From positions 13,341 through 77,340 of the forward strand of contig JALSGV010000024.1 of NCBI GenBank assembly GCA_026982565.1: DNA of 64,000 nt. Reading direction: 5' to 3'. The notes beneath the pieces are model-generated. The model did not search any database, had not been told where the DNA came from, and saw nothing but the letters and a program-made list of their open reading frames with translations. The DNA comes from Gammaproteobacteria bacterium. GTDB lineage: Bacteria; Pseudomonadota; Gammaproteobacteria; SZUA-140. Positions within the stretch are counted from its first letter, which is position 1, and the number at the start of each line of letters is the position of its first letter. Made by a program: the position numbers and the translations under genes. This document shows, in pieces, positions 33,288 through 64,000 of the stretch.

Positions 33288-33335
33288 CACAATACATAAT
33301 CAAGGCAAGTTATAAATAAAGAGGCGAGGGATAAA

Positions 33336-38558: not shown

Positions 38559-39371
38559 CTAGTTCTTGTCGGCCTGGCGGTTGCCCCCTGCTATCTTGTC
38601 GGCCAATTTCCAGTCTGCAACAGTATCAATGTCGATGGCGGCTTGCGCTTGGGGAAGAATCACCACGCCGATACGCAGGTTCAGGCGTTTGGAAATGCGC
38701 TGCAGACCCTCTTCCAGCGTCAGCTGTCCCAGCGCATAACGCAGTACAGCCATCCACCCGGCAGCGCTGACAACGCGGAATGGATTTTTCCGCTGTTGCT
38801 CGATTTGGCGCCAGAAATTGGTGATACGGCGACCTGCAGGGGTAGTGAAGGCAAAAAGGTTGCAGCCACTGTAACGGCCGTCGCGGAATTTCAGGGCGGT
38901 TCTGCGGGTATCTGGATAGGCCCGGATGATGTCATCATAGCAGGCGAGGCCGGCTACGACGTCATAATCACCGCGCACCGCCTGGGCACAGAAGTTGTCG
39001 AGGATATCCGGGCTCAAGAGGGCATGGTCAGCGGTGGTGAGCAGAACAGGCTGGGTATCCGCAACGGACTGCATGGCATGCGTGGCGCTGAGGCTGGGCG
39101 AAGCCTGGTTTTCCAGCCAATCCACTTTGCCTGTCCTGATGATCTCTTTTAGCTGCGGTGCGCCTTGAACAGCGCTTGCGGGTGGCCCGCAGAGTATGCG
39201 TTCGCCAATATGGCAACTGTTGCCCAGCGCATCCAGTACCCGCAGGACCATCGGTGTGCCCGCAACAGGAATCAGAGCCTTACATTGCGTGCCCGCCTCC
39301 CGCACCAGGGGATCATCAGGTGTACGGTCGCCGGCCAGAATGATGGCGGTGAAGCGGGGCTTGACGGGCAT
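38559..39371 (-). CDS. MobA-like/NTP_transf_3-family nucleotidyltransferase
   Basis: Its N-terminus (AIILAGDRTPDDP ... ALIPVAG) resembles nucleotide-diphospho-sugar or cytidylyl/guanylyl-transferases. It is 270 aa. Confidence 0.55.
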   Translation of the reverse strand: MPVKPRFTAIILAGDRTPDDPLVREAGTQCKALIPVAGTPMVLRVLDALGNSCHIGERILCGPPASAVQGAPQLKEIIRTGKVDWLENQASPSLSATHAMQSVADTQPVLLTTADHALLSPDILDNFCAQAVRGDYDVVAGLACYDDIIRAYPDTRRTALKFRDGRYSGCNLFAFTTPAGRRITNFWRQIEQQRKNPFRVVSAAGWMAVLRYALGQLTLEEGLQRISKRLNLRIGVVILPQAQAAIDIDTVADWKLADKIAGGNRQADKN

Positions 39372-39413: not shown

Positions 39414-40556
39414 CTACTGGCGCAATGGTTTCTGATAGATATTGTAGCGCTTATAAACGGCGCCGCCCGTTGTTTCGATGATGTTGCGCATGCCGGCATT
39501 GTTTTCCAGTATCCAGGACATTTCCACTTCCTCGATGCCACGCTTCCTGACAGCGTCCTGTACGGCGGCTATAACCAGGTACGCCAACCCCGGACCCAGG
39601 GTGGTGTGGTGATAACGCTTGCGTACGCCCATGAGAGGAATGCGCCCACTGCTTGGGTATTTCGCCTTGAGGCGCCACAGCAACTTTAGCCAGCCCAAGG
39701 GGAACAGCCTGCCATTGAGATCCTTGATGGCTTCGTTGACATTGGGCAGGGCCACGATCATGGCCACGGGTTCGCCGTCGATTTCCGCTATCTGCACGAA
39801 GTCATCGCCCACCAGCATTAACAGGTTGCGGCCGATTTCCTTGAATTCCGCCGCGGTGAAGGGGACATAGCCCCAATTATTGGACCAGGCATCGTTGAAG
39901 ATATCCTGCATGATTTCCAATTCTTCATCGATCTGCTTGCGGCGCAGTGGGCGCACCGTCGCCGTCCGGCTGGCCTTGTGGACCAGTTTGCGCATCAATG
40001 CGGGTGGTTCGAAATCCGAACTAATGCGGTAGGCGAGCAGCTGCTTTGCCAGAGAAAAAGACAGGTTTTCGATATGGGCCGCATAGTAGGGACGTGCATG
40101 CCCCATCATTAGAGAAGGCGGGGTTTCAAAGCCCTCTACCAGCAATCCACATTCCTCATTGATTGAAAGGTTGAAGGGGCCGCGTATGAGCGCCATGCCC
40201 TGTTCGCGTAGCCATTGCCCCGCTGTTTCCAACAGCAAGGCAAAAACGCCTGGATCATCTATGGCCTCCAGCATGCCGAAATAACCACATTTGTCATCGT
40301 AGCGATCCTGGTACAGTTCGTCGACCTGGGCAGTGATGCGGCCTACAGGCCGCTCACCTTCCATGGCCAGCCACGCCTGCCAGCGGGCGTGTTCGAAAAA
40401 CGGGTTTTTTTCTGACAGGTGTTGTCTGCGTTCGAGTATCAGGGGGGGGATCCAGGCGGGATCCTCCTGGTAGATCGACCACGGCAGGCGGATGAAAGTT
40501 TCCAGAGCCTTTTTACCCTCGACAGGGACGATGTGATATGCGGATTGAACAGTCAT
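39414..40556 (-). CDS. GNAT-fold acyltransferase, candidate bacterial ceramide synthase (bCerS-like)
   Basis: It is a 380-aa protein with a C-terminal GNAT-like region. It is transcribed divergently from the spt/acp/cerR/acyl-ACP-synthetase cluster. Its size and context match bacterial ceramide synthases. Confidence 0.5.
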   Translation of the reverse strand: MTVQSAYHIVPVEGKKALETFIRLPWSIYQEDPAWIPPLILERRQHLSEKNPFFEHARWQAWLAMEGERPVGRITAQVDELYQDRYDDKCGYFGMLEAIDDPGVFALLLETAGQWLREQGMALIRGPFNLSINEECGLLVEGFETPPSLMMGHARPYYAAHIENLSFSLAKQLLAYRISSDFEPPALMRKLVHKASRTATVRPLRRKQIDEELEIMQDIFNDAWSNNWGYVPFTAAEFKEIGRNLLMLVGDDFVQIAEIDGEPVAMIVALPNVNEAIKDLNGRLFPLGWLKLLWRLKAKYPSSGRIPLMGVRKRYHHTTLGPGLAYLVIAAVQDAVRKRGIEEVEMSWILENNAGMRNIIETTGGAVYKRYNIYQKPLRQ

Positions 40557-40947
40557 GGGAATTCTACCCTAGGTCATTCAGAAAAAATGTGGGAAACGAA
40601 GGGCTAAAAGTGGATTGTGAGGCAATGCGGTTTTTTTCATGATGGCGGTAGTGTAACGGCAAATGCCGACCAATGGCAGCTTCAATTGCTCTGTTCTGGT
40701 TCAGCATATTCAAGTTGGAGCGCCTCCAGGCCGATAAGTCTTTTCTTATATTAGGGCGGGTTAATTTCCGTTTGCGTGGAACATTCACTATAAAGTCAGC
40801 GTTATAGATAAAGTGTTTGTTGTTCCGGCTGAATGCGGAGCCCATGCGATGCCTGAAACTCCCTGGAACAAACCTGGGATCTTATAAATCATAGGGTCCG
40901 TCATGGAGTGAGCAAATATCACCCAAGTCCCGGCCAAATTATTAAAT

Positions 40948-40972
40948 TTGCGTTTTTAATGGAAAAACGCAA
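40948..40972. promoter_or_regulatory. Candidate operator palindrome TTGCGTTTTT-aatgg-AAAAACGCAA in the divergent promoter region of the sphingolipid cluster
   Basis: It is a perfect 10-bp inverted repeat with a 5-nt spacer. It lies in an AT-rich 640-bp region between the GNAT gene (- strand) and the acyl-ACP synthetase gene (+ strand). A second palindrome, TGTTGTaaaaaaaACAACA, occurs at 41046-41063. Confidence 0.4.
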
Positions 40973-41198
40973 GAATGTGCCTCCAAATACGAGGGGTGAA
41001 CGGAACGGAGTGTGTCAATCCTCCGGCAAACGAGCGCGCATTATATGTTGTAAAAAAACAACATTCGGGGTGCTAAATTCGCACACCAAAATAATTTTAT
41101 TAACCGCTTGATATGGCTAAGTATTACATGTATATTTGCCAAAATTTGATGTTTGCTGGGGACAGAAACCAACAGGAAAAGTATTAAAGGAGGTTAAT

Positions 41199-42959
41199 TT
41201 GGATCCGGAGACTACACCTACCCATAATACTTTGCCCTTTCGAGCGGCCGACTTTTCCAATCTGGCAGAAGCCCTGGATTATGCGGCGCAAGGTGAGACC
41301 GGATGTAATTTCTATACCGGGAGGGGCGAGGTCTATGCTGTACTCTCCTATGCCAAGTTGCGCCGGGAAGCTCAAGCCCTGGCGCGCCGCTTCCTGGGCC
41401 TGGGGCTGGAGCGCGGCGCCCGGGTTGCCTTGATTGCCGACACCCACCCTGATTTCCTGCGGTTTTTCTTTGCGTGCCAGTATGCGGGCCTGGTTCCTGT
41501 GCCTCTCCCCATACCCATCAGTCTGGGTGGTCATGGGGCCTATGTCGCCCATCTGCATTCCATGCTGCGCAGTTGCAATGCCGCTGTCGGTATTTCCACC
41601 GCGGGTTTTCTGCCCTATCTGGAGGAGGCGGCCGAGGGTTTGGCTATGAGCTTTGTTGGTGATCCCGTCGATTTTGAGAATTTCCCCGAGGCTCAGGAAT
41701 CCTTCGCCCCCCTGCAGGCCGCGGAACTGGCTTACATACAATATACCTCTGGCAGTACGCGATTCCCTCGTGGCGTCATGATCACTCAGGAAACGGTGCT
41801 GAGCAATTTGGCGGGCATTATCAGGCATGGCCTCAAAATGGGGCCGGGTGACCGCTTTGTTTCCTGGTTGCCGTTCTATCACGATATGGGATTCGTTGGC
41901 TTGGTGCTGGTGCCGGTGACCTCGCAGGTGTCTGTCGATTACCTTGGTACACGCGAATTTGCCATGCGTCCGCGCCAGTGGTTATCCCTCATGAGCAAGA
42001 CCAAGGCGACGATTTCATTCGGGCCGCCCTTTGGTTACGAGTTGGTGGAGCGCTGCATACGCGCCGGAGAGGCAAGCAAGCTGGACCTGAGCACCTGGCG
42101 TATTGCCGGGGTGGGAGCGGAAATGATCCGTTCGGAGCCGCTGTTGCGCTTTGCCAAGGCGCTGGAGCCCAGTGGTTTCGACCCCAAGGCCTTTCTTGCC
42201 TGCTATGGCATGGCGGAATGTTCCCTGGCCGTCAGTTTTGCCCCTCTCGACAAAGGGCTGGAAGTGGATCGCATCGATGCCGATCATCTGGCCAAGTGCC
42301 ATGAGGCGCGGCAGGTGCCTGGCGGCAACAATGAGGATCTTTCGCCACGCACCCGATCTTTCGTGGTTTGTGGCAGACCGATTCCGGGGTTCGAGGTGGA
42401 AATCCGGGACGAGCAGGGTAATGCACTTCCCGAGCGCCATAGCGGCACCATCTTCCTGCGCGGTCCCAGCGTGATGTCCGGCTATTTCAATGAAACAGAG
42501 ATTACCAGCCGCACCCTGTGCGGTGATGGTTGGTTGAATACAGGCGATATCGGCTACCTTCTCGATGGCCAGTTGGTGATCACCGGCCGGGAGAAAGACC
42601 TCATCATCATCAATGGGCGCAATATCTGGCCCCAGGACCTGGAATACCTGGCCGAACAGCAACCCGAAGTCCGCACCGGTGATGCCCTGGCATTTTCCGC
42701 GCCTGGTCCGTCAGGAGAAGAAACAACGGTCATGGTGGTACAGTGCCGCAAGAAGGATCCCGCCGTGCAGGCCTGCCTCGTCAACCGCCTGAAGCAGCGC
42801 GTGCGTTCCGAACTGGGTATCGACTGCTATGTCGAACTGGTGCCCTTGCATACGCTGCCACGCACCTCGTCCGGAAAGCTGTCGCGCTCCAAGGCCCGCC
42901 AGAACTTCATTGAGGCCCACGTCTGGGACGCCCAGCCCGCAGTCGCTGGCGACCAGTAA
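41199..42959 (+). CDS. Fatty acyl-AMP ligase / acyl-ACP synthetase (AMP-binding family)
   Basis: It has adenylation motifs (YTSGSTRFPRGVMITQ; GDRFVSWLPFYHDMG). A probable TTG start at 41199 lies 5 nt after an [11 protein letters not shown]. It is about 586 aa and sits upstream of cerR-acp-spt. Confidence 0.82.
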   Translation: MDPETTPTHNTLPFRAADFSNLAEALDYAAQGETGCNFYTGRGEVYAVLSYAKLRREAQALARRFLGLGLERGARVALIADTHPDFLRFFFACQYAGLVPVPLPIPISLGGHGAYVAHLHSMLRSCNAAVGISTAGFLPYLEEAAEGLAMSFVGDPVDFENFPEAQESFAPLQAAELAYIQYTSGSTRFPRGVMITQETVLSNLAGIIRHGLKMGPGDRFVSWLPFYHDMGFVGLVLVPVTSQVSVDYLGTREFAMRPRQWLSLMSKTKATISFGPPFGYELVERCIRAGEASKLDLSTWRIAGVGAEMIRSEPLLRFAKALEPSGFDPKAFLACYGMAECSLAVSFAPLDKGLEVDRIDADHLAKCHEARQVPGGNNEDLSPRTRSFVVCGRPIPGFEVEIRDEQGNALPERHSGTIFLRGPSVMSGYFNETEITSRTLCGDGWLNTGDIGYLLDGQLVITGREKDLIIINGRNIWPQDLEYLAEQQPEVRTGDALAFSAPGPSGEETTVMVVQCRKKDPAVQACLVNRLKQRVRSELGIDCYVELVPLHTLPRTSSGKLSRSKARQNFIEAHVWDAQPAVAGDQ

Positions 42960-42993
42960 ACCGGCCTTCTCCCTTATTTCCGGTTTTCAGCCC

Positions 42994-43926
42994 ATGTCCC
43001 GCATAGTAGCGGTAACCGGGGCGACAGGATTCATCGGTGGCGCGCTCCTCAAGGCCTTGTTGGCGCAGGGCTGGGAGGTGCGGGCCCTGACGCGCGGCGC
43101 CCGGACTTCTGCCCCGGCGAAGAATCCACGTCTCCACTGGGTAACGGGCGATCTGGACGATCAGGACAGTCTTGAACGCCTTGTTCACGATGCCCATGCG
43201 GTGGTCCATTGCGCCGGTGCGGTGCGCGGAATAACCCAGGCCCAGTTCGACCACGTCAATGAGACAGGCGTAAGGCGCATTGCCAATGCCATCCTGGCGC
43301 AAGCTCATCCTCCCCGCCTGGTTGCGCTTTCATCCCTGGCGGCACGCAAGCCATCTCTGTCACCCTATGCGGCCAGCAAGCGCAAGGGTGAGAAAGTGCT
43401 GCTGGAACTGGGGGACAAGGTGGATTGGCTGGCCTTTCGTCCTCCTGCGGTCTACGGGCCGGGTGACCGTGAACTATTGCCCTTGTTCCAGTGGATGGCG
43501 CGGGGGCTGGCCATTCTTCCCGGCCCCGGCGAGGCGCGTTTTTCCCTTATTTATGTTGACGATCTCGTCCAGGCTATTCTGCAGGGGCTGGAGATTGCGC
43601 CCGGCCATTCGGGAATCTACGAACTGGACGACGGGCGCAGCGGGGGTTACAGCTGGGACGATGTTGTTGCCATTTTCTCCCGCCTGCGTGGCAAGAGGGT
43701 GGTGAAATGCGCCATCCCGGCATGGTTGCTGCGCGGCCTCGGAGAAGCCAACCTTCTCATGGCTCGTATGGGAGGATATGCGCCCATGTTGACGCCTGGC
43801 AAGGTGCGTGAACTGCGCTACCTGGACTGGGTCTGTCACCATACCGGCTCATGGCGTGATATCAGTGGCTGGTCGCCACAGGTTTCACTGCCTGAAGGGC
43901 TGAAAAATACGCTCCACAGCCTTTAA
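42994..43926 (+). CDS. cerR: NAD(P)-dependent epimerase/dehydratase-family reductase, CerR-like (putative 3-keto-sphingoid/oxidised-ceramide reductase)
   Basis: It has a Rossmann GxxGxxG motif (VTGATGFIGG) and the NDUFA9/NmrA-like SDR architecture. It lies between the acyl-ACP synthetase and ACP/spt. The start is at an internal ATG (MSRIVAV). Confidence 0.65.
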   Translation: MSRIVAVTGATGFIGGALLKALLAQGWEVRALTRGARTSAPAKNPRLHWVTGDLDDQDSLERLVHDAHAVVHCAGAVRGITQAQFDHVNETGVRRIANAILAQAHPPRLVALSSLAARKPSLSPYAASKRKGEKVLLELGDKVDWLAFRPPAVYGPGDRELLPLFQWMARGLAILPGPGEARFSLIYVDDLVQAILQGLEIAPGHSGIYELDDGRSGGYSWDDVVAIFSRLRGKRVVKCAIPAWLLRGLGEANLLMARMGGYAPMLTPGKVRELRYLDWVCHHTGSWRDISGWSPQVSLPEGLKNTLHSL

Positions 43927-44145
43927 TGCGCATTTCTCACCAAGTGGTGAGAAATACGGCTTAAGCCATCTCTTGACCAGTCTTGCACGAGACAGTCTCG
44001 TATATTTTCCGATGTTGTCCGAAGGGTTAGAATTGATGGGCGATTCGCGCTAAAATGCCGCCTTTCCCAGGCTGGCTATGATCAGTGCTTGTTTTTAAAA
44101 TCAGAATCGGACAAGCTGAACCTTATAATTGGATACAAGACAGAT

Positions 44146-44391
44146 ATGAAACGATACCAGGAAATATTGGATGCGCTTTATGAGGTTTTGACGCCTTTTG
44201 CCAACGAGGCCAACAAACAGCTTTCCGAAGAGACCGAGCTTGTCGCCGATCTGGATATCGATTCCGTCAGGTTGCTGGAGTTGCTGATGGAAATCGAGGA
44301 TCACATGGATATTTCCATTCCACTCAATGTCTTGCCTGATATCAATACGGTCAGGGACCTGGCGGTCAGTCTCCAGGAACTGAGTGAATGA
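44146..44391 (+). CDS. acp: Dedicated acyl carrier protein
   Basis: It is 81 aa with a DLDIDSVRLLEL phosphopantetheine-attachment motif. It lies immediately upstream of spt, which it overlaps. Confidence 0.85.
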   Translation: MKRYQEILDALYEVLTPFANEANKQLSEETELVADLDIDSVRLLELLMEIEDHMDISIPLNVLPDINTVRDLAVSLQELSE

Positions 44392-45590
44392 CGCAGTCGA
44401 TTTTCGACAAGTTCCAGTATTATGCCAATCTGCGTGAAGACGTTGCGAGACTGGATACCAATCCTTTCAACGTTGTCGTGGAACAGGTGCTTTCCGAGAC
44501 GGAGGCCATCGTCAATGGCCGCCGCACCATACTGGCCGGCACCAACAACTATCTGGGCCTGACCTTCGATCCGCGCTGCATCGCCGCGGGGCGCAAGGCC
44601 CTGGAGGAGGAGGGGACGGGCACCACAGGATCCCGCATGGCCAATGGCACCTATGCCGGTCATCTGGCCCTGGAAAGGGAATTGGCCGATTTCTTTGGCC
44701 TGCCATCTTCCATCGTTTTCTCGACCGGGTATATTGCCAATCTTGGCATTCTGTCCACCATCCCGGGTCCATCGGATGTCGTCCTGCTGGATGCGGACAG
44801 CCATGCCAGCATCTATGATGGCTGCCGCCTCGGCAGCGCCGAGGTCATCCGCTTCCGTCACAACGACCCCGGTGACCTGGACAAGCGTCTGAAGCGCCTG
44901 GGGACCAAGGCGGAATCGGCCCTCATCGTCGTTGAAGGTATTTACAGTATGATCGGTGACCAGGCGCCACTCCAAGAGATCGTCGAGGTCAAGCGGCGCC
45001 ATGGCGCCTATCTGCTGGTTGACGAGGCACATTCCCTGGGCGTGCTGGGCGAGCATGGCCGGGGGCTGGTGGAGCAGGCAGGCGTACAGGAGGACGTGGA
45101 CTTTATCGTTGGCACTTTCAGCAAGAGCCTGGGCGCCATCGGCGGCTTCTGTGTCAGCAAATGGAAGGAACTGGAAAATGTACGCTATGCCATGCGTCCC
45201 TACATATTTACCGCATCCTCCTCGCCTTCCATCATCGCATCCACCCGGGTGGCCTTGCATATCCTGCGGGAGCAGGGGGCGGAACTGCGCAAGCGGCTAT
45301 GGGACAATGCCCACCGCCTCTATCTGGGCTTGCGGGAGCTTGATTTCAAGCTGGGCCCGGAGTCCAGCCCTGTGGTTGCCATCACCCTGGGTGAATCCAA
45401 GGAACAGGCCCTGGAAATCTGGCACGACCTTCTGGACAAGGGGGTCTATGTGAACCTGGTCATGCCGCCTGCCTCGCCAGGCGCGGGGTGCCTGCTGCGC
45501 TGCAGCCTGAGTTCCGCCCACAGCGCCGTTCAGATCGATGCCATCATCGATGCGTTCAGATCGTTACGCAATAATATCCTGGAAAGTTGA
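44388..45590 (+). CDS. spt: Serine palmitoyltransferase (alpha-oxoamine synthase family, PLP-dependent)
   Basis: It is a 400-aa alpha-oxoamine-synthase-family protein with a PLP lysine in GTFSKSLG. It is co-located with the ACP, acyl-ACP synthetase and reductase, which is typical of bacterial Spt loci rather than bioF or kbl. Confidence 0.8.
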   Translation: MTQSIFDKFQYYANLREDVARLDTNPFNVVVEQVLSETEAIVNGRRTILAGTNNYLGLTFDPRCIAAGRKALEEEGTGTTGSRMANGTYAGHLALERELADFFGLPSSIVFSTGYIANLGILSTIPGPSDVVLLDADSHASIYDGCRLGSAEVIRFRHNDPGDLDKRLKRLGTKAESALIVVEGIYSMIGDQAPLQEIVEVKRRHGAYLLVDEAHSLGVLGEHGRGLVEQAGVQEDVDFIVGTFSKSLGAIGGFCVSKWKELENVRYAMRPYIFTASSSPSIIASTRVALHILREQGAELRKRLWDNAHRLYLGLRELDFKLGPESSPVVAITLGESKEQALEIWHDLLDKGVYVNLVMPPASPGAGCLLRCSLSSAHSAVQIDAIIDAFRSLRNNILES

Positions 45591-45638: not shown

Positions 45639-47393
45639 ATGCACATACTTCTAAGATTCTTCCGCGTATATCCCTGGCAGTCCGCTTTGATGCTGCTGGC
45701 CCTGCTACTGGCTGGTGTTGCCGAGGGGGTCAGTTTGTCCGCCCTGCTGCCACTTCTCAGTCTGGCCCTTGAACAGGGGAGCCGCAAGGAGGCAACGGAT
45801 GCAGAGGCCAGTGCACAGGGAGACGGGGGGCTGGAAGAGATGGTGCGCAATGCCCTGGAAACCATCGGTTTGACGCCTGGCATTGGCGTACTGCTGGTCA
45901 TCGTGATGCTGGGGATCGTGGTCAAGAATCTGCTCCTGCTGGCGGCGCGCAAGCAGATCGGTTATACCGCGGCGCAGGTGACCACGGACCTGCGTTTGTC
46001 TCTATTGCGCGCCGTCCTGGCTTCGCGCTGGGAATATTTCATCAGACAGCCTGCCGGGCGCATGGCCAATGCCATGACGACGGAGGCCATGCGCGCCTCG
46101 GAAGCCTATATTTACGGCACCACCATGATTGCACGCTGCATCGAGGCCGTCGTCTATATCATCGTGGCGCTCTTGATTTCTTGGCAGGCCACTCTGGCGG
46201 CGCTGGGCGCCGGCCTGCTGGTGCTGGTCGTTACCTATGCCTTGGTAAGAATGTCGCGGCGTGCCGGCAAGCGGCAGACCAAGCTGCTGAAATCCCTGCT
46301 GGGACGCCTGACGGATACCCTGCAATCCGTCAAGCCCCTCAAGGCCATGGGCAGGGAGGATCTGGCCGATGAGGTGATGGCCGCTGAAACAACGAAGCTG
46401 AACCGCGCCCTGCAGAAGGAGGTGTTCAGCAAGGCCGTACTGCAGGCAATCCAGGAACCCATGTTCGTCGGTTTGATCGCCATCGGCATCTATGTGGCGC
46501 TGGTGCTGTGGGAAGTGCCCGCTTCCACCATGCTCATGCTGGCCCTGCTGTTGGGCCGCATCATGGCGCAGATGGGCAAGATCCAGCGCTGGTACCAGAA
46601 GATGGTGACGGCGGAAAGCGCCTTCTGGTCCATTGACGAGACCACACGGGAGGCCCAGGAGACGCGCGAAATTTCTTCCGGCACCCTGCCGCCCAGATTC
46701 GAACGCGCCATCGAATTGCGGGATGTCGATTTTTCCTATGGGGAAAAGGCAGTTTTGCGCCAGGCCTGCCTGCTCATTCCCAAGGGCTCTTTGATTGCGC
46801 TGACCGGCCCTTCCGGCGCCGGCAAGACCACCATTGTCGACCTCATTACCGGGTTGCTGCAGCCGCAGCGTGGGGCTATTTTGATCGATGGCGTGGATCT
46901 GAAGGAGATCGATCTGCGGCAGTGGCGCCGCAAAATCGGCTATGTGCCACAGGAGAACCTGCTTCTTCACGACGATATTTTTCACAATGTCACCCTGGGT
47001 GACCCCAAGCTGGATGAGTCGGATGCCGAATATGCGCTGCGCGCGGCCGGCGCATGGGATTTCGTTTCCGAATTACGGGAAGGGATGCACAGTGTCGTTG
47101 GTGAACGTGGCGCGGGGCTGTCCGGTGGACAGCGCCAGCGTATCATGATCGCCCGCGCCTTGGTGCACAGGCCCGATTTGTTGATCCTCGATGAGGCGAC
47201 CAGTGCCCTGGATCCCAAGAGCGAGGCGGCGATTTGTGACACCTTGAAACAACTGGCCGGGCAATTGACGGTTTTGACCATCTCTCATCAAACTGCCCTG
47301 GTGGATATCGCCGACCGGATCTTTCGCCTCCAGGATGGGCAGCTCGTTCCAGTGGGGCACGGTATCGATAGGCGGTCAGCGTCCGAGCAATGA
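45639..47393 (+). CDS. ABC exporter, fused permease/ATPase (MsbA-like lipid exporter)
   Basis: It has a 6-TM domain followed by a Walker A motif (GPSGAGKTT) and the ABC signature LSGGQRQR. A Walker B motif (LILDEATSALD) follows. It is 584 aa. Confidence 0.88.
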   Translation: MHILLRFFRVYPWQSALMLLALLLAGVAEGVSLSALLPLLSLALEQGSRKEATDAEASAQGDGGLEEMVRNALETIGLTPGIGVLLVIVMLGIVVKNLLLLAARKQIGYTAAQVTTDLRLSLLRAVLASRWEYFIRQPAGRMANAMTTEAMRASEAYIYGTTMIARCIEAVVYIIVALLISWQATLAALGAGLLVLVVTYALVRMSRRAGKRQTKLLKSLLGRLTDTLQSVKPLKAMGREDLADEVMAAETTKLNRALQKEVFSKAVLQAIQEPMFVGLIAIGIYVALVLWEVPASTMLMLALLLGRIMAQMGKIQRWYQKMVTAESAFWSIDETTREAQETREISSGTLPPRFERAIELRDVDFSYGEKAVLRQACLLIPKGSLIALTGPSGAGKTTIVDLITGLLQPQRGAILIDGVDLKEIDLRQWRRKIGYVPQENLLLHDDIFHNVTLGDPKLDESDAEYALRAAGAWDFVSELREGMHSVVGERGAGLSGGQRQRIMIARALVHRPDLLILDEATSALDPKSEAAICDTLKQLAGQLTVLTISHQTALVDIADRIFRLQDGQLVPVGHGIDRRSASEQ

Positions 47394-48642: not shown

Positions 48643-49758
48643 ATGTCATCGCAAACCAACAATACCTGTACTCCATCTCCCCGCATCTGGCTGGTCCTCA
48701 GTGACAAACTGGGAGACAATGCCCAGGTAGAGATCATCGCCGATGCGCTGGGTCTGCCCTATGTGACGAAGCGGGTGTACCCCCTGGAGCAATACGTGCT
48801 GGGCAAGCCCCCCTTCAAGGCTTCCCTCTATCATATCGACAAGGTCCGGTCCGACAGCCTGGAGCCGCCATGGCCCGATCTCATACTCACCATCGGGCGC
48901 CGCTCGGCCATGGTGGCCATGTGGATACGAGAACAAAGCGGAGGCCGGACCCGGGTGGTCCTGGTGGGGCGCCCCAAGCGGGATCTGGATCAATATGCCC
49001 TGATCATCGCGCCTTCCCAATATCATCTGCCTGACAGGCCTAACGTGCTGCGCCTCGACCTGCCCCTCATGCGGCCCGACGAGGCGGCCATCGGGAAGGC
49101 GGTGACCTTATGGCGTGAACGTTTTTCCACCATGCAACGCCCCATGTTCGCGCTCATGGTGGGAGGGGCCACCAAGCCTTTCGTTTTCGATGAAAAGGTG
49201 GCGCGGGAATTGACGGCCCGGGCCGCCGCCCTTGCCGCATCCGCCGGGGGAACACTCTATGTCACCACCAGCAGACGTACGCCGCCCGCAGTGGTGGAGG
49301 CCATCAAGGCGGCATTGCCTGAGCACTCACAGTTCTATCAGTGGCGCAAGGATGGCAAGGATAATCCCTATCTTGCCCTGCTCGGGCTGGCCGACTATTT
49401 CATCGTGACGGGCGACAGTGTCTCCATGATGGTGGAGGTGGCCCGGCTGGGCAGGCCCCTGGCTATATTCAGTTTGCCGGTCAGGGATGGGTTCGCAAGC
49501 CGCTTCCAACAGTGGATCTCAAGCCCGAAGATCGGAAAATATAACAGAATCCTCAGCAGATTAATTGTCTCGGCGATATCTCGACTGGGAATACTGGGTT
49601 ATACTCGCGATCTGACGGCCTTGCATCGCGTTTTGGTCGATAGGGGGCTGGCAGTACCCTTTGGCAAGCCTTTCCCCATAGCAGGAGAAAGGGCCCTGGA
49701 TGAACTGCCTCTGGTGGCCGCTCGAGTAAGGAAGCTGTTGGATGAAGAAAATGCATGA
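48643..49758 (+). CDS. ELM1/DUF1022-family protein, paralog 2
   Basis: It has PPWPDLILTIGRRSAMVAMWIR, MVGGATKPF and IVTGDSVSMM motifs. It is divergent from paralog 1. Confidence 0.7.
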   Translation: MSSQTNNTCTPSPRIWLVLSDKLGDNAQVEIIADALGLPYVTKRVYPLEQYVLGKPPFKASLYHIDKVRSDSLEPPWPDLILTIGRRSAMVAMWIREQSGGRTRVVLVGRPKRDLDQYALIIAPSQYHLPDRPNVLRLDLPLMRPDEAAIGKAVTLWRERFSTMQRPMFALMVGGATKPFVFDEKVARELTARAAALAASAGGTLYVTTSRRTPPAVVEAIKAALPEHSQFYQWRKDGKDNPYLALLGLADYFIVTGDSVSMMVEVARLGRPLAIFSLPVRDGFASRFQQWISSPKIGKYNRILSRLIVSAISRLGILGYTRDLTALHRVLVDRGLAVPFGKPFPIAGERALDELPLVAARVRKLLDEENA

Positions 49759-59238: not shown

Positions 59239-60475
59239 GAGGTGATACAGGCCTTGCCATATGCCGGGGTTCGGTGCGGAACATTCCCTTTACACGTTGT
59301 ACTGTCCGAGTCAGATCATCCTGAGGTGCGGAATCGTTTTCTCCGAGTGGTTCTCCCAGCCATGCCGCCCGGCCTGCCTGGATCAGCCGCTCATGGAGGC
59401 CGCGCACTTCACGCCGCATGCGCTTTGGTCCCAGCCACATGGCCAGGCGGTGTGAGAGGGGGCGCAGGCGGAAGTTATAGCCATAACGCCACCAGGGAAG
59501 CCTGTCTCCAGGCGCGGGGGGGCGGTGAGCGCCAGGATCGTCGGCAAGATCGAAGATATAGACGGGTTTTCCCGTCTCGCAGGCCTCACAGACCATGGAG
59601 ACGCTGTCTCCCGTAACGATGAATGCATCGGCCAGGGCGAGAAAGGCGAAGTAGGGGTTGTCCTTGTCATTTGCTGACCAGCAGTGGTAGTAAGCAGGTG
59701 ACTGGATCAGGTCCCGCAGTGCCGGCATGGCGTGGAGAGGCGTCCGCGCGCTCGAGGTAACCAGCAGGGAGCCGCCGCACCGTTTTGCCAGTGCGTCGGC
59801 GCTTCGTGCCAGGGTGCGGATCTTGATGTCATTGAGGGTGAAGGGGCCACTGTTGCCTCCGACGAGCAGGGCGATAAAGGGATGGGGCAGGTGCGAAAGC
59901 CTGTCCGTCCATGCGCGGGCTGCCGAGGCAAGCCGCTGCTCAGTAATGCGGTGCAGTGGAAGCATGTTGTGCAGGATATTTGTGGCCTGGGGCAGGCAAT
60001 ATTGAGGGGTTGTGACGATGAGATCGAATTGCGCCAATGGAGCCCAGGGACGGCCAAGATGGACGAGGCGTGTCTGTCCATGGGATTGTTGCCGTATCCA
60101 GCGGGCAACGGGCTCGTTGCGGCGCCCGGCAGTAATCACCAAGTCTGGCCATGGTGGAGCCAGTGGTGTGGATTCGTGCTGTTTTATGCCCGCCAGCGTC
60201 GGCCCCAGCAGCAGGTTGCTCAACAACTCGCTTTTCCGATACACCATGTGCTTGCTCTCGTAGGGCCAGCCGAGCGCTTCGGCCAGGGCAAGGACCTGGT
60301 TGTTGTCTCCCGCCTTGTGTCCCATCAGCAGCCATGTCTGGGGAACTTTTTCCCGATTGGCGTAGATGTTGCCATGGGGAAACGGTGTGGAGCTGGGTGG
60401 GGGTGGAAACGGGGCAGGCATTGTTACATTATAGCAAGCATTCAACGGAACACGCCCTGGCGGTACAGACGCCAC
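59228..60475 (-). CDS. ELM1/DUF1022-family protein, paralog 3
   Basis: It has PPWPDLVITAGRRNEPVARWIR, VGGNSGPFTL and IVTGDSVSMV motifs. It is 415 aa with a longer N-terminus. Confidence 0.7.
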   Translation of the reverse strand: MASVPPGRVPLNACYNVTMPAPFPPPPSSTPFPHGNIYANREKVPQTWLLMGHKAGDNNQVLALAEALGWPYESKHMVYRKSELLSNLLLGPTLAGIKQHESTPLAPPWPDLVITAGRRNEPVARWIRQQSHGQTRLVHLGRPWAPLAQFDLIVTTPQYCLPQATNILHNMLPLHRITEQRLASAARAWTDRLSHLPHPFIALLVGGNSGPFTLNDIKIRTLARSADALAKRCGGSLLVTSSARTPLHAMPALRDLIQSPAYYHCWSANDKDNPYFAFLALADAFIVTGDSVSMVCEACETGKPVYIFDLADDPGAHRPPAPGDRLPWWRYGYNFRLRPLSHRLAMWLGPKRMRREVRGLHERLIQAGRAAWLGEPLGENDSAPQDDLTRTVQRVKGMFRTEPRHMARPVSPHVQ

Positions 60476-61398
60476 ATGAGGCCCCAGATGAATATCAGGG
60501 GATAACGGCGCAGGCGTGGCGTGATTTCAATAGTGGCGCCCGAGTGCCGCTCCAGTTTCCAGATGAGGTAGTCCAGCCCGCCTTCGAAGGTGAAGAAGGC
60601 CTTCAGCAGGCGCGCCACTGACAGCAATTTTCCCTGGACGATGCGCAGGCGCCAAGCGGCCTTGTTGCCAAGGCTTTGATGTCTTGCAACGGGTTCTTGG
60701 CAAAAGGCGGCGCCATTTCCATTTGCCTGATGAATTCCCGGGAACGAGGTCAGGGCAAGGCCCGTGATTTCATCGAAATAGGTTTCAAAATGTTGGTAAA
60801 TCTCCTTGCCGCGTTGTCCCTTCTCCACGCGCAACTCCGCACGATAGGTAAGGCCGAGCCCTTTTTCCCATATGTCGGCAATGGTGAAATTCGGGGGGAG
60901 TGATGGCAAGACGCGCGCCATAAAGGTCATAATCGCTTGTCCCAGACTGGAGTGGATCTGGCTGGTGGCGGCCTGGTCGCGCGCATACAGCAATCCCGTG
61001 GGCTGGGCGAAACGCGCCCAGACATAGGAGTGAAACCAATGTGCGCAGCCTCTGTGCAGGTCCTGCCGGGAGAGCACGGCGTATTTGCTGCGCAAGACTC
61101 CTTGGGGATGTCTGGCTTCCAGGTAGAATACGTTGGGCGGCAGCAGGGTGTTGAGAATGGCCAGCCGCCTTTTTTCAAAGGCTTTGTGGTAGTCATCGAC
61201 AATGACATAGAGATCCACCAGCCCATCGAAGGGGTCGCCTCCTCGCAGGCATGAGCCATAAAACAGGATGGCCAGCAGGGAATCGCCGTAACGTTCCCGC
61301 AGGGCATCCCGCAATGTATCCAGGGCCGGATCATGTGGCAGGCCGGTTTGTTTGGCAATGGTTGCAATGAGGGCGGGTGGCGGGGCAGGGATCTTCAT
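60442..61398 (-). CDS. Nucleotidyltransferase-fold protein, Tam41/Mmp37-like (putative CDP-lipid synthase type)
   Basis: It has the Pol-beta-like NTase signature (LLAILFYGSCLRGGDPFDGLVDLYVIVDD). It is 318 aa and overlaps the paralog-3 start. Confidence 0.45.
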   Translation of the reverse strand: MKIPAPPPALIATIAKQTGLPHDPALDTLRDALRERYGDSLLAILFYGSCLRGGDPFDGLVDLYVIVDDYHKAFEKRRLAILNTLLPPNVFYLEARHPQGVLRSKYAVLSRQDLHRGCAHWFHSYVWARFAQPTGLLYARDQAATSQIHSSLGQAIMTFMARVLPSLPPNFTIADIWEKGLGLTYRAELRVEKGQRGKEIYQHFETYFDEITGLALTSFPGIHQANGNGAAFCQEPVARHQSLGNKAAWRLRIVQGKLLSVARLLKAFFTFEGGLDYLIWKLERHSGATIEITPRLRRYPLIFIWGLMWRLYRQGVFR

Positions 61399-62474
61399 CG
61401 GGCTTTTTCGCTGAAACGCAGGAAATGGAGGGGCTCCCCATGGCCGATGCGCAGGGGGCCGGCGGCCAGGCGCGCCGGATACAGCTCGCCGTCGATGGTG
61501 AAGGTCCCCTCCATGGCCAGTTCCAGTGTATCCACCTTGCGGCTCCAGTAACCGTTGCGGGCCGTCACGTGGCGGTTGGTGCGGCCCCAGAAAAGGCGCG
61601 GCAAGGTGCGCAGGGCATGACGGGCGCCTGAGCGGATGGCGGTGAAGTGCAGGGTGCCTGCATCATCCCCCCAGTAAGGGTGCGTGCCGAGAAACAATCT
61701 GTTCAGGGCGGAGACCATCAGCAGGAAATAGTCTTTTTCCCCTTCCATGCCGGGCATCTGCGGGCGCATCTGTAACGACATGGGTACGGGCGCCACGTAG
61801 CGGTGATCATTGCGCGCCATGGCATAGAGTACACGCAGGGCGCACAGACCGGGGCCCAGGCTGTCGCGCAGGCCGGGGCGCAGGACCTTCCGGTGGCAGT
61901 ATTCGATCCCTTTGATGATGGCGCCGGCGCCGAAGAACATGCCATATAAGGGCGCTTCGTCACCGGCCACTACCCGAATTGGGGCGCGGCGGATTACCTC
62001 CAAGGCGGGCGTGGTGGCATCCGCCCAGCACAGGAGTCGTTCCAGGCTGTGCGCTGCCTTGCCTGTCAACCCTACATCTCCCGCCGTCATGTTGGTCGTG
62101 CCGCCACGCAACAGCGCCAGTAGAGGGGGGTGTCCGAATGGCCGCTTCTCCATCAAGGCAGTGAGCACGGCGGCAATGGTGCCGTCGCCGGCGTTGATGG
62201 CCAGCACATCGGGAGGCGCGGCAGCCATGTTTTCCAGTGCGGTCAGAATCTCGGCCGGGTTCCTGGATAGGTGGTGGGTGACGCCAGGGTGGCGCCCGAG
62301 GATCGCCTCGACCCACGCCATGCCCCGGCAGTTTCTGCCGCTGCCTGGATTGGACAACAGGGCAACGCGCAGGGAGCGGCCAGCGGGAACAGGGATGTTC
62401 TGTGAGGTGTGAATGGGATTTTCCTGGTTAAATATCCTGATTCGACTGCATATCGTATACTGGATGCATGACAC
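61395..62474 (-). CDS. DAGK_cat/sphingosine-kinase-family lipid kinase (candidate ceramide or sphingoid-base kinase)
   Basis: It has the DAGK catalytic-domain motifs (RVALLSNPGSGRN; LAINAGDGTIAAV; LRGGTTNMTA). It is 359 aa. Confidence 0.65.
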   Translation of the reverse strand: MSCIQYTICSRIRIFNQENPIHTSQNIPVPAGRSLRVALLSNPGSGRNCRGMAWVEAILGRHPGVTHHLSRNPAEILTALENMAAAPPDVLAINAGDGTIAAVLTALMEKRPFGHPPLLALLRGGTTNMTAGDVGLTGKAAHSLERLLCWADATTPALEVIRRAPIRVVAGDEAPLYGMFFGAGAIIKGIEYCHRKVLRPGLRDSLGPGLCALRVLYAMARNDHRYVAPVPMSLQMRPQMPGMEGEKDYFLLMVSALNRLFLGTHPYWGDDAGTLHFTAIRSGARHALRTLPRLFWGRTNRHVTARNGYWSRKVDTLELAMEGTFTIDGELYPARLAAGPLRIGHGEPLHFLRFSEKAR

Positions 62475-63427
62475 AGGTAAAACACAATGATGTCGTTCAG
62501 GCTGAGGGCATACCGGTCTACACGCTTGCCCATTTATCTGATCCGCACCTGACCTCCCTCGACGACGTCAAGATGAGAGAGCTGCTCAACAAGCGCCTGC
62601 TGGGTTATCTGTCATGGCGCAGTCACCGCCGCGAGGAGCACCGCGCGGAGGTCTTGCAGGCACTGGTGAACGATCTGCGGGAAATACAGCCAGACCACAC
62701 GGTGATCACCGGCGACATGACCCATGTGGGTCTGCCGCAGGAGTGCCGGGAGGTCAGCGCCTGGCTTTCATCCCTTTCCGATGCCCGGTGTCTGACGGTG
62801 ATTCCTGGAAACCATGATGCCTATGTGGCGGCGCCGTGGGGGAAAACCATGGGATTGTGGACATCATATATGGCGTCGGATACTGCCGCTTCACTGACGC
62901 GGGATGCGCTCTTTCCTGCGCTGAGGGAACGCGGACCCCTTGCCCTTATCGGTCTTTCCAGCGCCTCTCCCACTCCTCCTTTCTTCGCCACGGGGCGGTT
63001 GGGAGTGGCGCAGTTGGCGGCCCTTGAGCGCTTGTTGCAGGAAACCGGGGCCCGGGGTCGGATTCGCGTTCTGCTCATTCACCATCCACCCATGAAGCAT
63101 GCCATTGGCTGGCGCAAGCGATTGACCGATGGCGACGCGCTATGCGGCATCATCGCCAAGCACGGGGTAGAGATGGTGTTGCACGGGCATACTCACCGTT
63201 CCGTGATGGATAAGCTGCAGACGGATTCCGGGGAGGCGCCCGTGATCGGCGTGCCGTCTGCCTCGGGCATCGGTCTCAAGCCCGGCAAGCGGGCGCAATA
63301 TCATCTTTACCACTTCTACGACGGCCCTTGGGGGCGGCGGCTCCGTATCTCCGTGAGGGGTTATGATGTAGAGGAAGAACGCTTTGTCGCCCAGGGGACT
63401 CGGCAGTCCTCCCTTCCCGCGGAATGA
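62468..63427 (+). CDS. Calcineurin-like metallophosphoesterase
   Basis: It has the motifs DPH, GDMTH, GNHD, IHHPP and GHTHR. It is 319 aa and divergent from the lipid kinase. Confidence 0.8.
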   Translation: MTQVKHNDVVQAEGIPVYTLAHLSDPHLTSLDDVKMRELLNKRLLGYLSWRSHRREEHRAEVLQALVNDLREIQPDHTVITGDMTHVGLPQECREVSAWLSSLSDARCLTVIPGNHDAYVAAPWGKTMGLWTSYMASDTAASLTRDALFPALRERGPLALIGLSSASPTPPFFATGRLGVAQLAALERLLQETGARGRIRVLLIHHPPMKHAIGWRKRLTDGDALCGIIAKHGVEMVLHGHTHRSVMDKLQTDSGEAPVIGVPSASGIGLKPGKRAQYHLYHFYDGPWGRRLRISVRGYDVEEERFVAQGTRQSSLPAE

Positions 63428-63439: not shown

Positions 63440-64000
63440 CTACCTGAACTTGCGCAATAGATAGAAGCAGGCGAGAGAGACTACCAATACAGGCGCCGCC
63501 GCCACCGCCAGGGCATTGATATTGAACAGCAGGCCCAGGTTCCCCATGAACTGATTGAACAAGGTGTAGACCAGGCCCGTGACGATGCCTAGAACGATTC
63601 TCAGGCCGAAACTGGCGGAGCGCAGGGCGCCAAAGGCAAAGGGCAGGGCCAGCAGCATCAGCGCCACCAGGCTGACGGGGCCCATGATTTTCTGCCACAG
63701 CATGATCTCGTAGCGTTGCGTGTTCTGCCCGGCGTTTTTCAGATATTCGATGTACTTGTGCAGATTGTAGGGTGACAGGCTGTATGCCGGGAGTTCCAGC
63801 CGTCCCAGTTGGGTCAGGGACGAGAAAGGCCGCCAGGACATTTCCTTCAGCCGGGTATTGGCGACCCCCGAGGGGGTAAACGTCTTGCGCACCACTTTCT
63901 GCAGTTTCCATAGGTTCTTGTCGCTGATGTCGGCATGTTCCGCGTGGGTATAGGTGATCAGCTTGCCTGTCTTATCGAAGGTAAAGATGCTGATATCGGA
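63440..64000 (-). CDS. lptG: LptF/LptG-family LPS export permease, C-terminal part (gene continues beyond the window end)
   Basis: The C-terminal TM segments are typical of YjgP/YjgQ permeases (…LALPFAFGALRSASFGLRIVLGIVTGLVYTLFNQF…LLRKFR). The N-terminus lies off the window. Confidence 0.7.
   Translation of the reverse strand, partial: SDISIFTFDKTGKLITYTHAEHADISDKNLWKLQKVVRKTFTPSGVANTRLKEMSWRPFSSLTQLGRLELPAYSLSPYNLHKYIEYLKNAGQNTQRYEIMLWQKIMGPVSLVALMLLALPFAFGALRSASFGLRIVLGIVTGLVYTLFNQFMGNLGLLFNINALAVAAAPVLVVSLACFYLLRKFR

Follow-up and report, generated by a model that had tools for sequence, protein, structure and literature searches.

The 64,000-nucleotide stretch of DNA analyzed here (the window) very probably carries, as judged by homology, a canonical proteobacterial dihydroceramide cluster of the Caulobacter, E. 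coli yghO and Nitrosomonas type in an uncultured gammaproteobacterium. All five genes are genuine and correspond to the bacterial ceramide-synthesis toolkit known from the literature. Such clusters are widespread and have been described before, and the host is gammaproteobacterial, so this is an ordinary new example.

Organization of the five-gene cluster

The first-pass annotation described five genes within 6 kb, and every one of them is present where it was drawn (Table 1), with a span of 6177 bp. The starts of the fatty acyl-AMP ligase (FAAL) and reductase (SDR) genes were taken from a gene caller run on the identical ENA contig. The FAAL open reading frame (41136-42959, +) is longer than the called gene, which starts at 41199; the SDR frame opens at 42829, with the called start at 42994, and the alignment with E. 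coli Epi begins at residue 1 of the 310-aa form. The proposed overlap of the ACP gene with spt is confirmed, as the stop codon of the ACP gene and the start codon of spt share ATGA (44388-44391, 4 nt). The FAAL gene had been placed immediately upstream; it does precede the ACP gene and spt, but it is not adjacent to the ACP gene because the reductase gene sits between them, as was also stated at the time. A single sigma-70-like match was located in the bCerS/FAAL intergenic region (41108-41136, +), but sigma-70-like matches in the promoter scan were overall not above those in shuffled sequences; therefore, the match is no evidence of function.

Table 1. Features of the cluster and its surroundings in the window
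Feature	Coordinates	Strand	Length	Remarks
MobA-like NTP transferase, CC_1153-like head-group gene	38559..39371	-		Directly downstream of bCerS; Pfam NTP_transf_3 6.2e-13
bCerS/YghO-type tandem-GNAT N-acyltransferase, candidate ceramide synthase	39414..40556	-	380 aa	Divergent from FAAL operon
Divergent intergenic region bCerS/FAAL operon, presumed promoters	40557..41198	.		Gap in gene calls
AasR-type fatty acyl-AMP ligase / acyl-ACP synthetase	41199..42959	+	586 aa	Called start
CerR-type SDR/NDUFA9-like reductase	42994..43926	+	310 aa	Called start
AcpR-type dedicated acyl carrier protein	44146..44391	+	81 aa	
Serine palmitoyltransferase (Spt), predicted	44388..45590	+	400 aa	
ABCB-type half-transporter exporter, candidate lipid flippase/exporter	45639..47393	+		Pfam ABC_membrane, ABC_tran
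ELM1-family (PF06258) predicted GT-B glycosyltransferase	47376-48512	-		Pfam
ELM1-family (PF06258) predicted GT-B glycosyltransferase	48643-49758	+		Pfam
ELM1-family (PF06258) predicted GT-B glycosyltransferase	59228-60475	-		Pfam
Tam41/Mmp37-like protein (CC_1161/CpgC-like)	60442..61398	-		Weak Pfam Tam41_Mmp37
DAGK_cat lipid kinase, candidate ceramide kinase (CpgB/CC_1160-like)	61395..62474	-		Pfam 37.4 bits, cut-off 23.6
Metallophosphoesterase	62468..63427	+		Pfam Metallophos 2.8e-13
LptG-like permease, 3' half, possibly LptG2	63443..64000	-		Cut by window end; Pfam LptF_LptG 1.8e-31

Family assignment of the cluster proteins

Of the Pfam domains expected in the first-pass annotation, AMP-binding, Epimerase/NAD_binding_10, PP-binding and Aminotran_1_2 were found, and the domain matches of FAAL, SDR, ACP and Spt are far beyond chance; the GNAT protein had no Pfam or NCBIfam match in profile searches.

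The 400-aa alpha-oxoamine synthase (AOS) protein is predicted to be a member of the serine palmitoyltransferase family. Its Aminotran_1_2 match has an E value of 8e-52, and it passes the curated SPT equivalog of NCBIfam (NF047599) with a score of 618.2 bits (cut-off 500; Spt model match, E 4.5e-186). Other AOS models in NCBIfam scored lower: BioF 319 (cut-off 426), Kbl 304 (cut-off 460), HemA 221 and CqsA-type 215. The best solved relatives in the PDB are the SPTs of Sphingomonas wittichii (2x8u, 451 bits) and S. paucimobilis (2jg2, 433 bits), aligned over residues 23-392, with the Sphingobacterium SPT at 268 bits. The non-SPT enzymes follow, with Kbl at 227, cysteate-C-fatty acyltransferase at 195, BioF at approximately 180, ALAS at 175 and CqsA at 130 bits, such that the solved Sphingomonas SPTs score about twice as high as Kbl or BioF. 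PLP-site segments align with these structures, and GTFSKS, DEAHS/G, DADSHASIYDG and the C-terminal LLRCSL are kept in the alignment with 2x8u; we take their catalytic and PLP-lysine roles to be those of established SPT structural work. The E. coli Spt is 57.5% identical.

The FAAL is assigned to the AasR type by family and by spt-locus homology, and its loading of AcpR is putative. It matches the NCBIfam fatty acyl-AMP ligase model NF006624 with 784.5 bits (cut-off 600; E 4.8e-236) and Pfam AMP-binding (1.6e-56), and it shares 47% identity over 562 aa with the FAAL of the E. coli spt locus (ECD_02851), which is itself 42% identical to CC_1165. The reductase matches Epimerase (2.3e-30), NAD_binding_10, 3Beta_HSD and NmrA in Pfam, carries a GATGFIGG motif near its N terminus and has 9g83_P and NDUFA9 subunits as its nearest PDB relatives. 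Its alignment with E. coli Epi (ECD_02852), the published orthologue of CC_1164 (34% identity), covers 307 aa at 43% identity. The ACP has the features of an AcpR: it is a small PP-binding protein (Pfam, 3.9e-08), includes an attachment-type Ser (DSV motif) in LDIDSVRLLE and is encoded directly upstream of spt in the operon; the ACP in the AcpR position of the E. coli spt locus is 42% identical.

Since Pfam and NCBIfam give no match, the GNAT assignment rests on YghO homology and a structure model. Aligned over 373 aa, the protein and E. coli YghO share 50.4% identity (E 6e-139); YghO (ECD_02850) has in turn been published as the Aca/CerS orthologue of CC_1154 (44% identity, E 1e-107, 98% coverage). 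The AlphaFold2 model is confident (pLDDT 89.8, pTM 0.88) and confirms a predicted GNAT-superfamily fold. Its top Foldseek matches in the PDB are tandem-GNAT acyltransferases throughout (best E 5.5e-16) and include 5kf1, 2wpw, 7q3a and MshD 1ozp, with E values from 1e-16 to 1e-12. A homologue search recovered more than 7900 proteins, many of which carry a precomputed PF00583 match. The earlier proposal that this protein is the bacterial ceramide synthase thus has the YghO homology, the tandem-GNAT model and the expected genomic setting in its favor, and against it that no curated family model was matched; we regard the protein as a candidate bacterial ceramide synthase, tied to CC_1154 through YghO.

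Comparison with characterized sphingolipid loci

The five-function toolkit proposed in the first-pass annotation (Spt, AcpR, AasR, bCerS and CerR) holds, each protein having a single best E. coli match and the matches being collinear. In E. coli, itself gammaproteobacterial like the host of the window, the order is yghO<>FAAL-epi-acp-spt, with all five genes in the same orientation as in the window and the GNAT gene divergent; identities are 50% for GNAT, 47% for FAAL, 43% for SDR, 42% for ACP and 58% for Spt. The reference locus was that of E. coli O121, presumed from gene names and position to correspond to BL21 ECD_02850-02854. According to published tables, the five E. coli genes have their Caulobacter orthologues in CC_1154 and CC_1162-1165 (34-53% identity), and published work on 3-oxo-sphinganine used cloned E. 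coli aasR, acpR and spt. The loci diverge downstream: in E. coli, lptG2/lptF2 and the Wzx-like YghQ come after spt, whereas in the window an ABC half-transporter takes that position and the LptG-like gene is found at a distance of 18 kb. A locus of this type is also found in UTI89, and an spt match was present in 2824 of 5426 complete E. coli genomes.

The Caulobacter crescentus locus CC_1152-CC_1168 (CCNA_01210-01226) holds the same five dihydroceramide functions (spt, acpR, cerR, aasR and cerS) together with cpgA-C and lptF2/G2; its similarity to the window was established through E. coli only. In both, acpR immediately precedes spt, cerS has a MobA-like NTP transferase gene (CC_1153 in Caulobacter) as its partner, and the region also includes genes for a Tam41-domain protein, a lipid kinase and an LptG-like protein. 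The window differs in its order aasR-cerR-acpR-spt, with a divergent cerS right beside it, and in the genes inserted between its two halves, namely the ABCB-type exporter, three ELM1-type glycosyltransferases, GT4, GT2, an AsnB-like gene and a sulfotransferase. No homologues of CC_1166 (Wzx-like), CC_1167, CC_1168, CC_1158 or CC_1159 were seen within the window.

Nitrosomonas eutropha C91 (Neut_0458-0461 and Neut_1100-1106), likened here by published description, has the order aasR-cerR-acpR-spt of the window and likewise has a CC_1153 orthologue following cerS, and the top-scoring NCBIfam Spt model for the Spt of the window is the 'BetaP' one. The N. eutropha genes, however, lie in three separate regions, whereas cerS in the window abuts the spt operon, and N. 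eutropha is betaproteobacterial, unlike the host of the window. In Sphingomonas, aasR is far from acpR-spt, again unlike the window.

Proposed pathway and alternative products

The pathway steps for this organism are inferred by homology. The AasR-like acyl-AMP ligase would activate a long-chain fatty acid and load it onto the dedicated ACP (AcpR), and the PLP enzyme Spt would condense L-serine with acyl-AcpR to give 3-ketodihydrosphingosine. N-acylation of this intermediate by the tandem-GNAT bCerS/YghO homologue and reduction of the C3 ketone by the CerR homologue (SDR) would then yield dihydroceramide, although the order of these last two reactions is disputed even for Caulobacter, in which dihydroceramide experimentally requires all five genes. 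The neighboring genes (CC_1153-like NTP transferase, DAGK-type kinase, Tam41-like protein, LptG-like permease and ABC exporter) probably supply a phosphorylated, perhaps glycosylated head group and export of the lipid to the outer membrane.

A different substrate for the AOS enzyme would change the product: with alanine or glycine the enzyme would produce 1-deoxy-sphingoid bases, and with cysteate a sulfonolipid, rather than a serine-derived ceramide. The solved cysteate-C-fatty acyltransferase is a detectable relative, sulfotransferase genes lie nearby in the window and, according to a published survey, 1-deoxy- and sulfono-ceramides are abundant in environments with related Spt-like clades. 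We nevertheless consider this improbable, given 433-451 bits for the SPTs against 195 for the cysteate enzyme and a score above the curated Spt equivalog cut-off. Sulfotransferases, moreover, form sulfate esters and not the C-S bond of sulfonolipids.

FAAL, ACP and AOS modules also occur in secondary metabolism, and CqsA-type synthases are detectable relatives of the Spt, so the module could in principle serve a product other than a membrane lipid, for instance an alpha-hydroxyketone signal of the CqsA type or an aminolipid natural product, with the GNAT and SDR proteins as tailoring enzymes. This is very improbable: CqsA falls far below SPT (130 versus 451 bits in the PDB and 215 versus 618 in NCBIfam), the gene set, order and orientation are those of experimentally defined ceramide loci, and the co-occurring LptF/G-like, lipid-kinase and Tam41-like genes fit a membrane lipid product. 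Least credible of all is a housekeeping BioF or Kbl with coincidental neighbors. Both share the Pfam family Aminotran_1_2 with the AOS protein and their models score significantly, but neither reaches its NCBIfam cut-off, whereas the Spt model passes, and the neighborhood is kept across 52 loci. The cut-offs and PDB scores effectively refute this identity, and the AOS protein sides with the solved SPTs, as the first-pass annotation had it.

The wider sphingolipid island

The cluster belongs to a larger sphingolipid island, which spans at least 26 kb and also carries CC_1153-, ceramide-kinase-, Tam41- and LptG-like genes. CC_1153 is the MobA-like NTP transferase beside cerS in Caulobacter, and N. 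eutropha has its counterpart, Neut_1101, beside Neut_1100. The ABC exporter gene begins after a 48-nt gap behind spt; the PDB relatives of its product include ABCB4, PglK and MsbA, and it shares the general ABCB-type half-transporter architecture with MsbA. It scores below the curated model cut-offs for MsbA (TIGR02203, 267 against a cut-off of 602; PRK11176, 200 against 867) and HepA (311 against 725). We propose it as a candidate, worth following, for the still-sought inner-membrane sphingolipid flippase.

The DAGK_cat kinase gene adjoins the Tam41-like gene, and the kinase is likened by description to CpgB, a ceramide kinase that has sphingosine-kinase domains and a GGDG motif in common with hCERK. 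The Tam41-like protein matches Tam41_Mmp37 weakly (E 3.2e-4; 20.6 bits, under the Pfam cut-off of 24); CC_1161 has the same InterPro domain, IPR015222. The LptG-like permease scores 171 bits across half of the NCBIfam LptG model and is 32.5% identical to the second, spt-linked LptG of E. coli. The three ELM1 genes match Mito_fiss_Elm1 in Pfam (2.4e-56, 4.2e-57 and 2e-68), a family whose members are regarded as glycosyltransferases in Acinetobacter loci for the LOS outer core, and we infer that they may decorate the sphingolipid.

Conservation and host

Synteny was sampled in 52 related genome loci. FAAL, CerR and Spt genes lie together within 10 kb in 42 of these and all five genes in 18; the NTP transferase-GNAT pair is retained in 17. 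The ABC exporter is directly beside spt in 22 of the 45 related loci with sufficient downstream sequence, and beside it in all three informative metagenome loci. Tam41-like homologues lie at most 10 kb from spt in 15 related loci and ELM1 genes near spt in 14. Homologous kinase/Tam41-like pairs occur beside FAAL/Spt in four related loci, and metallophosphoesterase homologues adjoin LptG2/LptF2-NTP transferase-GNAT in five.

The adjacent ACIII respiratory operon noted in the first-pass annotation is real, and nothing was found that links it to the lipid cluster. The betaproteobacterial chromosome (Nitrosomonadales or Gallionellaceae) suggested there does not agree with the relatives found. Named relatives among the best 120 MurA matches are Chromatiales, Thiotrichales, Endothiovibrio, Ca. 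Tenderia and Gammaproteobacteria MAGs, with no Nitrosomonadales or Gallionellaceae among them, and the nearest Spt loci come from Gammaproteobacteria, Methylococcales, Ectothiorhodospiraceae and Sedimenticolaceae MAGs. By its MurA, the host appears to be an uncultured Chromatiales/Tenderiales-like gammaproteobacterium. Nor is the cluster unusual for such an organism, as had been thought: dozens of related MAGs share it, and the literature already covers the gene set in alpha-, beta- and gamma-proteobacteria, including N. eutropha (beta), E. coli, Azotobacter vinelandii and Pseudomonas luteola, with one survey placing potential producers across 40 phyla.

A predicted ceramide-synthesis gene cluster

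The ORF map of the window places five genes within a span of 6177 bp, encoding a GNAT-like protein of the YghO type (bCerS), a fatty acyl-AMP ligase (FAAL/AasR), an SDR protein (CerR), an ACP (AcpR) and an AOS-family protein (Spt). Starts of the FAAL and SDR genes were taken from gene calls on ENA metagenome contig ERZ27262642 k141_255236, which carries the same DNA. The first-pass annotation had described five genes within 6 kb and an overlap between the ACP and spt; both were borne out, with the ACP gene ending and spt beginning in a common ATGA at 44388-44391. The Pfam check proposed there supported four of the five families (AMP-binding, Epimerase/NAD_binding_10/NmrA, PP-binding and Aminotran_1_2; E 4e-08 to 2e-56) and gave no match for the 380-aa protein. 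The 219-nt gap between cerR and acpR (43927-44145) contains a weak terminator-like hairpin at 43987-44001, pointing to transcription in two units, one of aasR-cerR and one of acpR-spt-ABC. A promoter and terminator scan showed no enrichment over shuffles; therefore, operon boundaries are not claimed from the scan.

Features of the window in and around the lipid cluster
Feature	Coordinates	Strand	Remarks
Alternative Complex III (ACIII) operon	26964-34376	+	multihaem cytochrome, molybdopterin-type, 4Fe-4S and NrfD-type membrane subunits
Protein of 310-334 aa	37507-38439	-	signal-peptide-like N-terminus; directly downstream of NTP transferase
MobA-like NTP transferase	38559-39371		downstream of bCerS
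GNAT-like protein (bCerS), 380 aa	39414-40556	-	ORF map
FAAL	41136-42959	+	ORF map; called start 41199 (ENA), 586 aa
SDR (CerR), 310 aa			called start 42994 (ENA)
ACP, 81 aa	44146-44391		ORF map
Spt, 400 aa	44388-45590		ORF map
ABCB-type half-transporter	45639-47393	+	starts 48 nt after spt
ELM1 family (PF06258), paralogue 1	47376-48512	-	
ELM1 family (PF06258), paralogue 2	48643-49758	+	
GT4 glycosyltransferase, asparagine-synthase-like amidotransferase, sulfotransferase	50733-55354	-, +, +	
Tandem paralogue, 302 aa	55453-56361	+	3' of sulfotransferase
Tandem paralogue, 306 aa	56377-57297	+	
ELM1 family (PF06258), paralogue 3	59228-60475	-	
Tam41-like gene and DAGK_cat kinase	60442-62474	-	CC_1161/CC_1160-like
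Metallophosphoesterase	62468-63427	+	
LptG-like gene, truncated	63443-64000	-	

The AOS-family protein scored 618 bits on NF047599 (cut-off 500), one of the NCBIfam curated equivalog models for bacterial serine palmitoyltransferase, 488 on the alphaproteobacterial Spt model and 344 on the CFB model. It fell below the cut-offs for BioF (319 against 426) and Kbl (304 against 460) and also failed the HemA (221) and CqsA (215) types. Among all PDB sequences its eight best matches were Sphingomonas SPTs (430-451 bits), followed by Sphingobacterium SPT (268), Kbl (at most 227), cysteate acyltransferase (195) and BioF (approximately 180), and the GTFSKS, DEAHS and DADSHAS segments were kept in the alignment. 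Both sets of scores favor the SPTs over BioF and Kbl, the families named in the first-pass annotation as the competing assignments; the putative Spt assignment was retained, and an identity as BioF or Kbl was rejected.

FAAL reached 784 bits on the curated fatty acyl-AMP ligase model (cut-off 600). The nearest solved relatives of the SDR protein were 9g83_P, an NAD-dependent epimerase/dehydratase chain, and NDUFA9 subunits, in agreement with its earlier description as NDUFA9/NmrA-like. The GNAT-like protein produced no significant PDB sequence match (best E 0.32) and belongs to a very large family with more than 7900 matches; the best 120 all exceeded 540 bits, and many carry a precomputed PF00583 assignment. 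A confident AlphaFold2 model (pLDDT 89.8, pTM 0.88), for which 38 members of the family were used, was matched by Foldseek to tandem-GNAT acyltransferases (E 5.5e-16 to 1e-12), namely glucosamine N-acetyltransferase 5kf1, the clavulanate tandem GNAT 2wpw, MAB_4324 (7q3a) and MshD (1ozp).

When 5426 complete E. coli genomes were searched with acpR-spt by distant blastn, 2824 had a match carrying the annotation "spt: serine palmitoyltransferase", indicating that the cluster is widespread even in a model species. In E. coli, yghO (380 aa, minus strand) is followed by FAAL, an NAD-dependent epimerase, ACP and spt (plus strand), and the five-gene order and orientation are identical to those in the window; the example locus (L055) reads yghO<>FAAL-epi-acp-spt-lptG-lptF. 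E. coli K-12 reportedly lacks the four genes that lie between yghO and yghQ. Local BLASTP against this locus gave a single best match for each window protein: GNAT to YghO (50.4% identity, E 6e-139), FAAL to FAAL (47%), SDR to Epi (43%), ACP to ACP (42%) and Spt to Spt (57.5%). The E. coli genes, yghO/ECD_02850 and ECD_02851-02854, correspond to aca(cerS), aasR, epi(cerR), acpR and spt and are orthologues of Caulobacter CC_1154 and CC_1165-1162, with identities of 44, 42, 34, 41 and 53%, respectively (Padilla-Gomez et al. 2022, PMC9386255). Dihydroceramide formation in Caulobacter requires all five (PMC11324152). By sequence identity, the window proteins are therefore no more distant from the E. 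coli set than that set is from its Caulobacter counterparts; the link to Caulobacter runs via E. coli, and the strain compared was O121, with its locus assumed equal to that of BL21. The earlier functional reading of the cluster as a ceramide-synthesis toolkit was correct, judged by homology to proteins of Caulobacter, E. coli and Sphingomonas, and it is from these that a putative mechanism would be read.

Host and distribution

The ceramide genes were previously considered unusual for a chromosome described as beta-proteobacteria-like. The window contains ordinary housekeeping genes (leuS, lptE, holA, rng, yhdP, murA, the his operon, tatC, rpe and trpE) as well as the ACIII operon. Among the 120 best MurA matches, the closest named relatives were a Chromatiales MAG (90%), Gammaproteobacteria MAGs and a Thiotrichales MAG; Endothiovibrio diazotrophicus (74%) and Ca. 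Tenderia electrophaga (73%) were also near, betaproteobacteria were absent, and a betaproteobacterial origin was rejected on these relatives. The closest genome locus (L003; WGFB01000014.1, "Gammaproteobacteria bacterium S146_68") shares rpe-gph-trpE and the entire lipid cluster with the window at 57-90% protein identity. Both lines of evidence are gammaproteobacterial; therefore, neither the label nor the argument from unusualness is supported. The ACIII operon reported near the lipid cluster was confirmed; in addition to the subunits tabulated, it holds one further ORF and genes for ActD and a cytochrome c. Nothing was found to link the operon with the lipid cluster. A chemolithotrophic lifestyle of the host is plausible.

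One genome per species was scanned with Spt peptide patterns, which reached close relatives, and 52 loci were recovered with Spt identities of 57-88%. The hosts are labeled Gammaproteobacteria, Methylococcales, Ectothiorhodospiraceae, Sedimenticolaceae, Pseudomonadales, "Ca. Azophilus" and, for many, Deltaproteobacteria/Desulfobacterota. Local tblastn searches with the proteins of the window showed that, no more than 10 kb from spt, FAAL, CerR and Spt occur together in 42 of the 52 loci and all five genes in 18; the NTP-transferase and GNAT pair was counted in 17 loci, LptG/LptF-like genes in 20, a Tam41-like gene in 15 and ELM1-family genes in 14. The literature reports the five genes as conserved in alpha-, beta- and gamma-proteobacteria. 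A published table lists Neut_0458-0461 of N. eutropha in the order aasR-cerR-acpR-spt, as in the window, and also Neut_1100-1106. In the Black Sea alone, spt-like genes were reported in MAGs of 38 phyla, giving 40 potential sphingolipid-producing phyla. The cluster is thus one more instance of a system already well described, here in a gammaproteobacterial MAG, and is neither rare nor unexpected. It adds, unsurprisingly, one uncultured gammaproteobacterial lineage to the many bacteria already predicted to make ceramide, and it helps in annotation and in the interpretation of sphingolipid records from the environment.

A wider sphingolipid island

The pairing of bCerS with an NTP transferase is the same as in Caulobacter (CC_1154/CC_1153) and N. 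eutropha (Neut_1100/1101). At 57-64 kb, the window holds one gene of no assigned family, a GT2 gene, the third ELM1 gene, and then the Tam41-like gene, the DAGK_cat kinase, the metallophosphoesterase and the 3' half of the LptG-like gene, these last four being 15-18 kb from spt. The Tam41-like match is weak, yet it is to the same domain as Caulobacter CC_1161. The Caulobacter ceramide kinase is CpgB/CC_1160, and LptF2/G2 have lately been implicated in sphingolipid transport. Because in many of the 52 loci homologues of the 57-64 kb genes, including these four, adjoin the ceramide genes, the sphingolipid island reaches the window end and probably extends beyond it.

Between the island halves lie the ABC exporter, two ELM1 genes, the GT4, asparagine-synthase-like and sulfotransferase genes and several genes of no assigned family. 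In the LOS outer-core loci of Acinetobacter, ELM1 proteins are regarded as GT-B glycosyltransferases of the LOS core. G+C content is 0.50-0.52 across the GT4-to-sulfotransferase stretch and 0.55-0.61 in the flanking stretches; such a low-G+C stretch is typical of variable surface-glycan loci.

An ABC exporter adjoining spt

The exporter is related to lipid and lipid-linked-glycan flippases. It directly adjoins spt in 22 of the 45 related loci with enough downstream sequence and in all three informative metagenome loci; the metagenome scan with the ABC protein returned six loci, all close relatives, and is therefore of little use as an independent test of linkage. Five homologues (57-60% identity) were also sampled without reference to spt. 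Two are one gene from ACP-Spt, directly after LptF-LptG; another has an AOS gene 7.5 kb off, with LptF/G and ELM1 genes between; a fourth sits among sulfotransferase, Wzy_C and ELM1 genes and lacks spt within 8 kb; and the last has neither spt nor LptF/G, ELM1 or sulfotransferase genes nearby. In total, four are beside ELM1 and LptF/G-like genes, three are within 8 kb of an ACP/AOS gene, and two are in sulfotransferase/Wzy_C/ELM1 clusters resembling LPS-core or other glycolipid loci. No homologue of the Wzx-like CC_1166/YghQ was found in any of the related loci.

In the literature consulted, to 2026, no protein is named as the flippase for bacterial sphingolipids at the inner membrane. The potential of this locus lies in the comparative signal: in many Gammaproteobacteria and Desulfobacterota, spt is accompanied by a distinct ABC exporter, LptF/G-like permeases and ELM1 glycosyltransferases, which provides a concrete candidate for the inner-membrane crossing of these lipids. 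To regard the exporter as a candidate sphingolipid flippase is reasonable. The data are equally compatible with its belonging to an export module for LPS core or another glycolipid that happens to lie close by. Together with the LptF/G genes, it could be the host's ordinary LPS machinery, because two of the five homologues are in LPS-core- or glycolipid-like clusters, of which one lacks spt within 8 kb, and a third has neither spt nor sulfotransferase, Wzy_C or ELM1 genes nearby. That the exporter fails the curated cut-offs for MsbA, and was rejected as its orthologue, counts for the flippase reading. We consider doubtful the fuller form of the flippase reading, in which the exporter would be the missing inner-membrane flippase for sphingolipids or an oxidised-ceramide precursor, acting upstream of LptB-LptF2G2 as MsbA does for LPS, and the ELM1 glycosyltransferases and sulfotransferase between the island halves would build an undescribed glycosylated or sulfated head group.

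Conserved proteins of no assigned family

The protein encoded just downstream of the NTP transferase matches no family; its conservation is 57% in L003 and weak, at 25-26%, in three other related loci (L018, L019 and L049). For the tandem 302- and 306-aa paralogues, searches of Pfam, NCBIfam and the PDB gave nothing. Their counterparts in L003 share 98 and 92% identity with them, against only 88% for the Spt of that locus, and those in four further loci (L009, L020, L029 and L031) share 75-79%, an unusually strong conservation for proteins without a family match.
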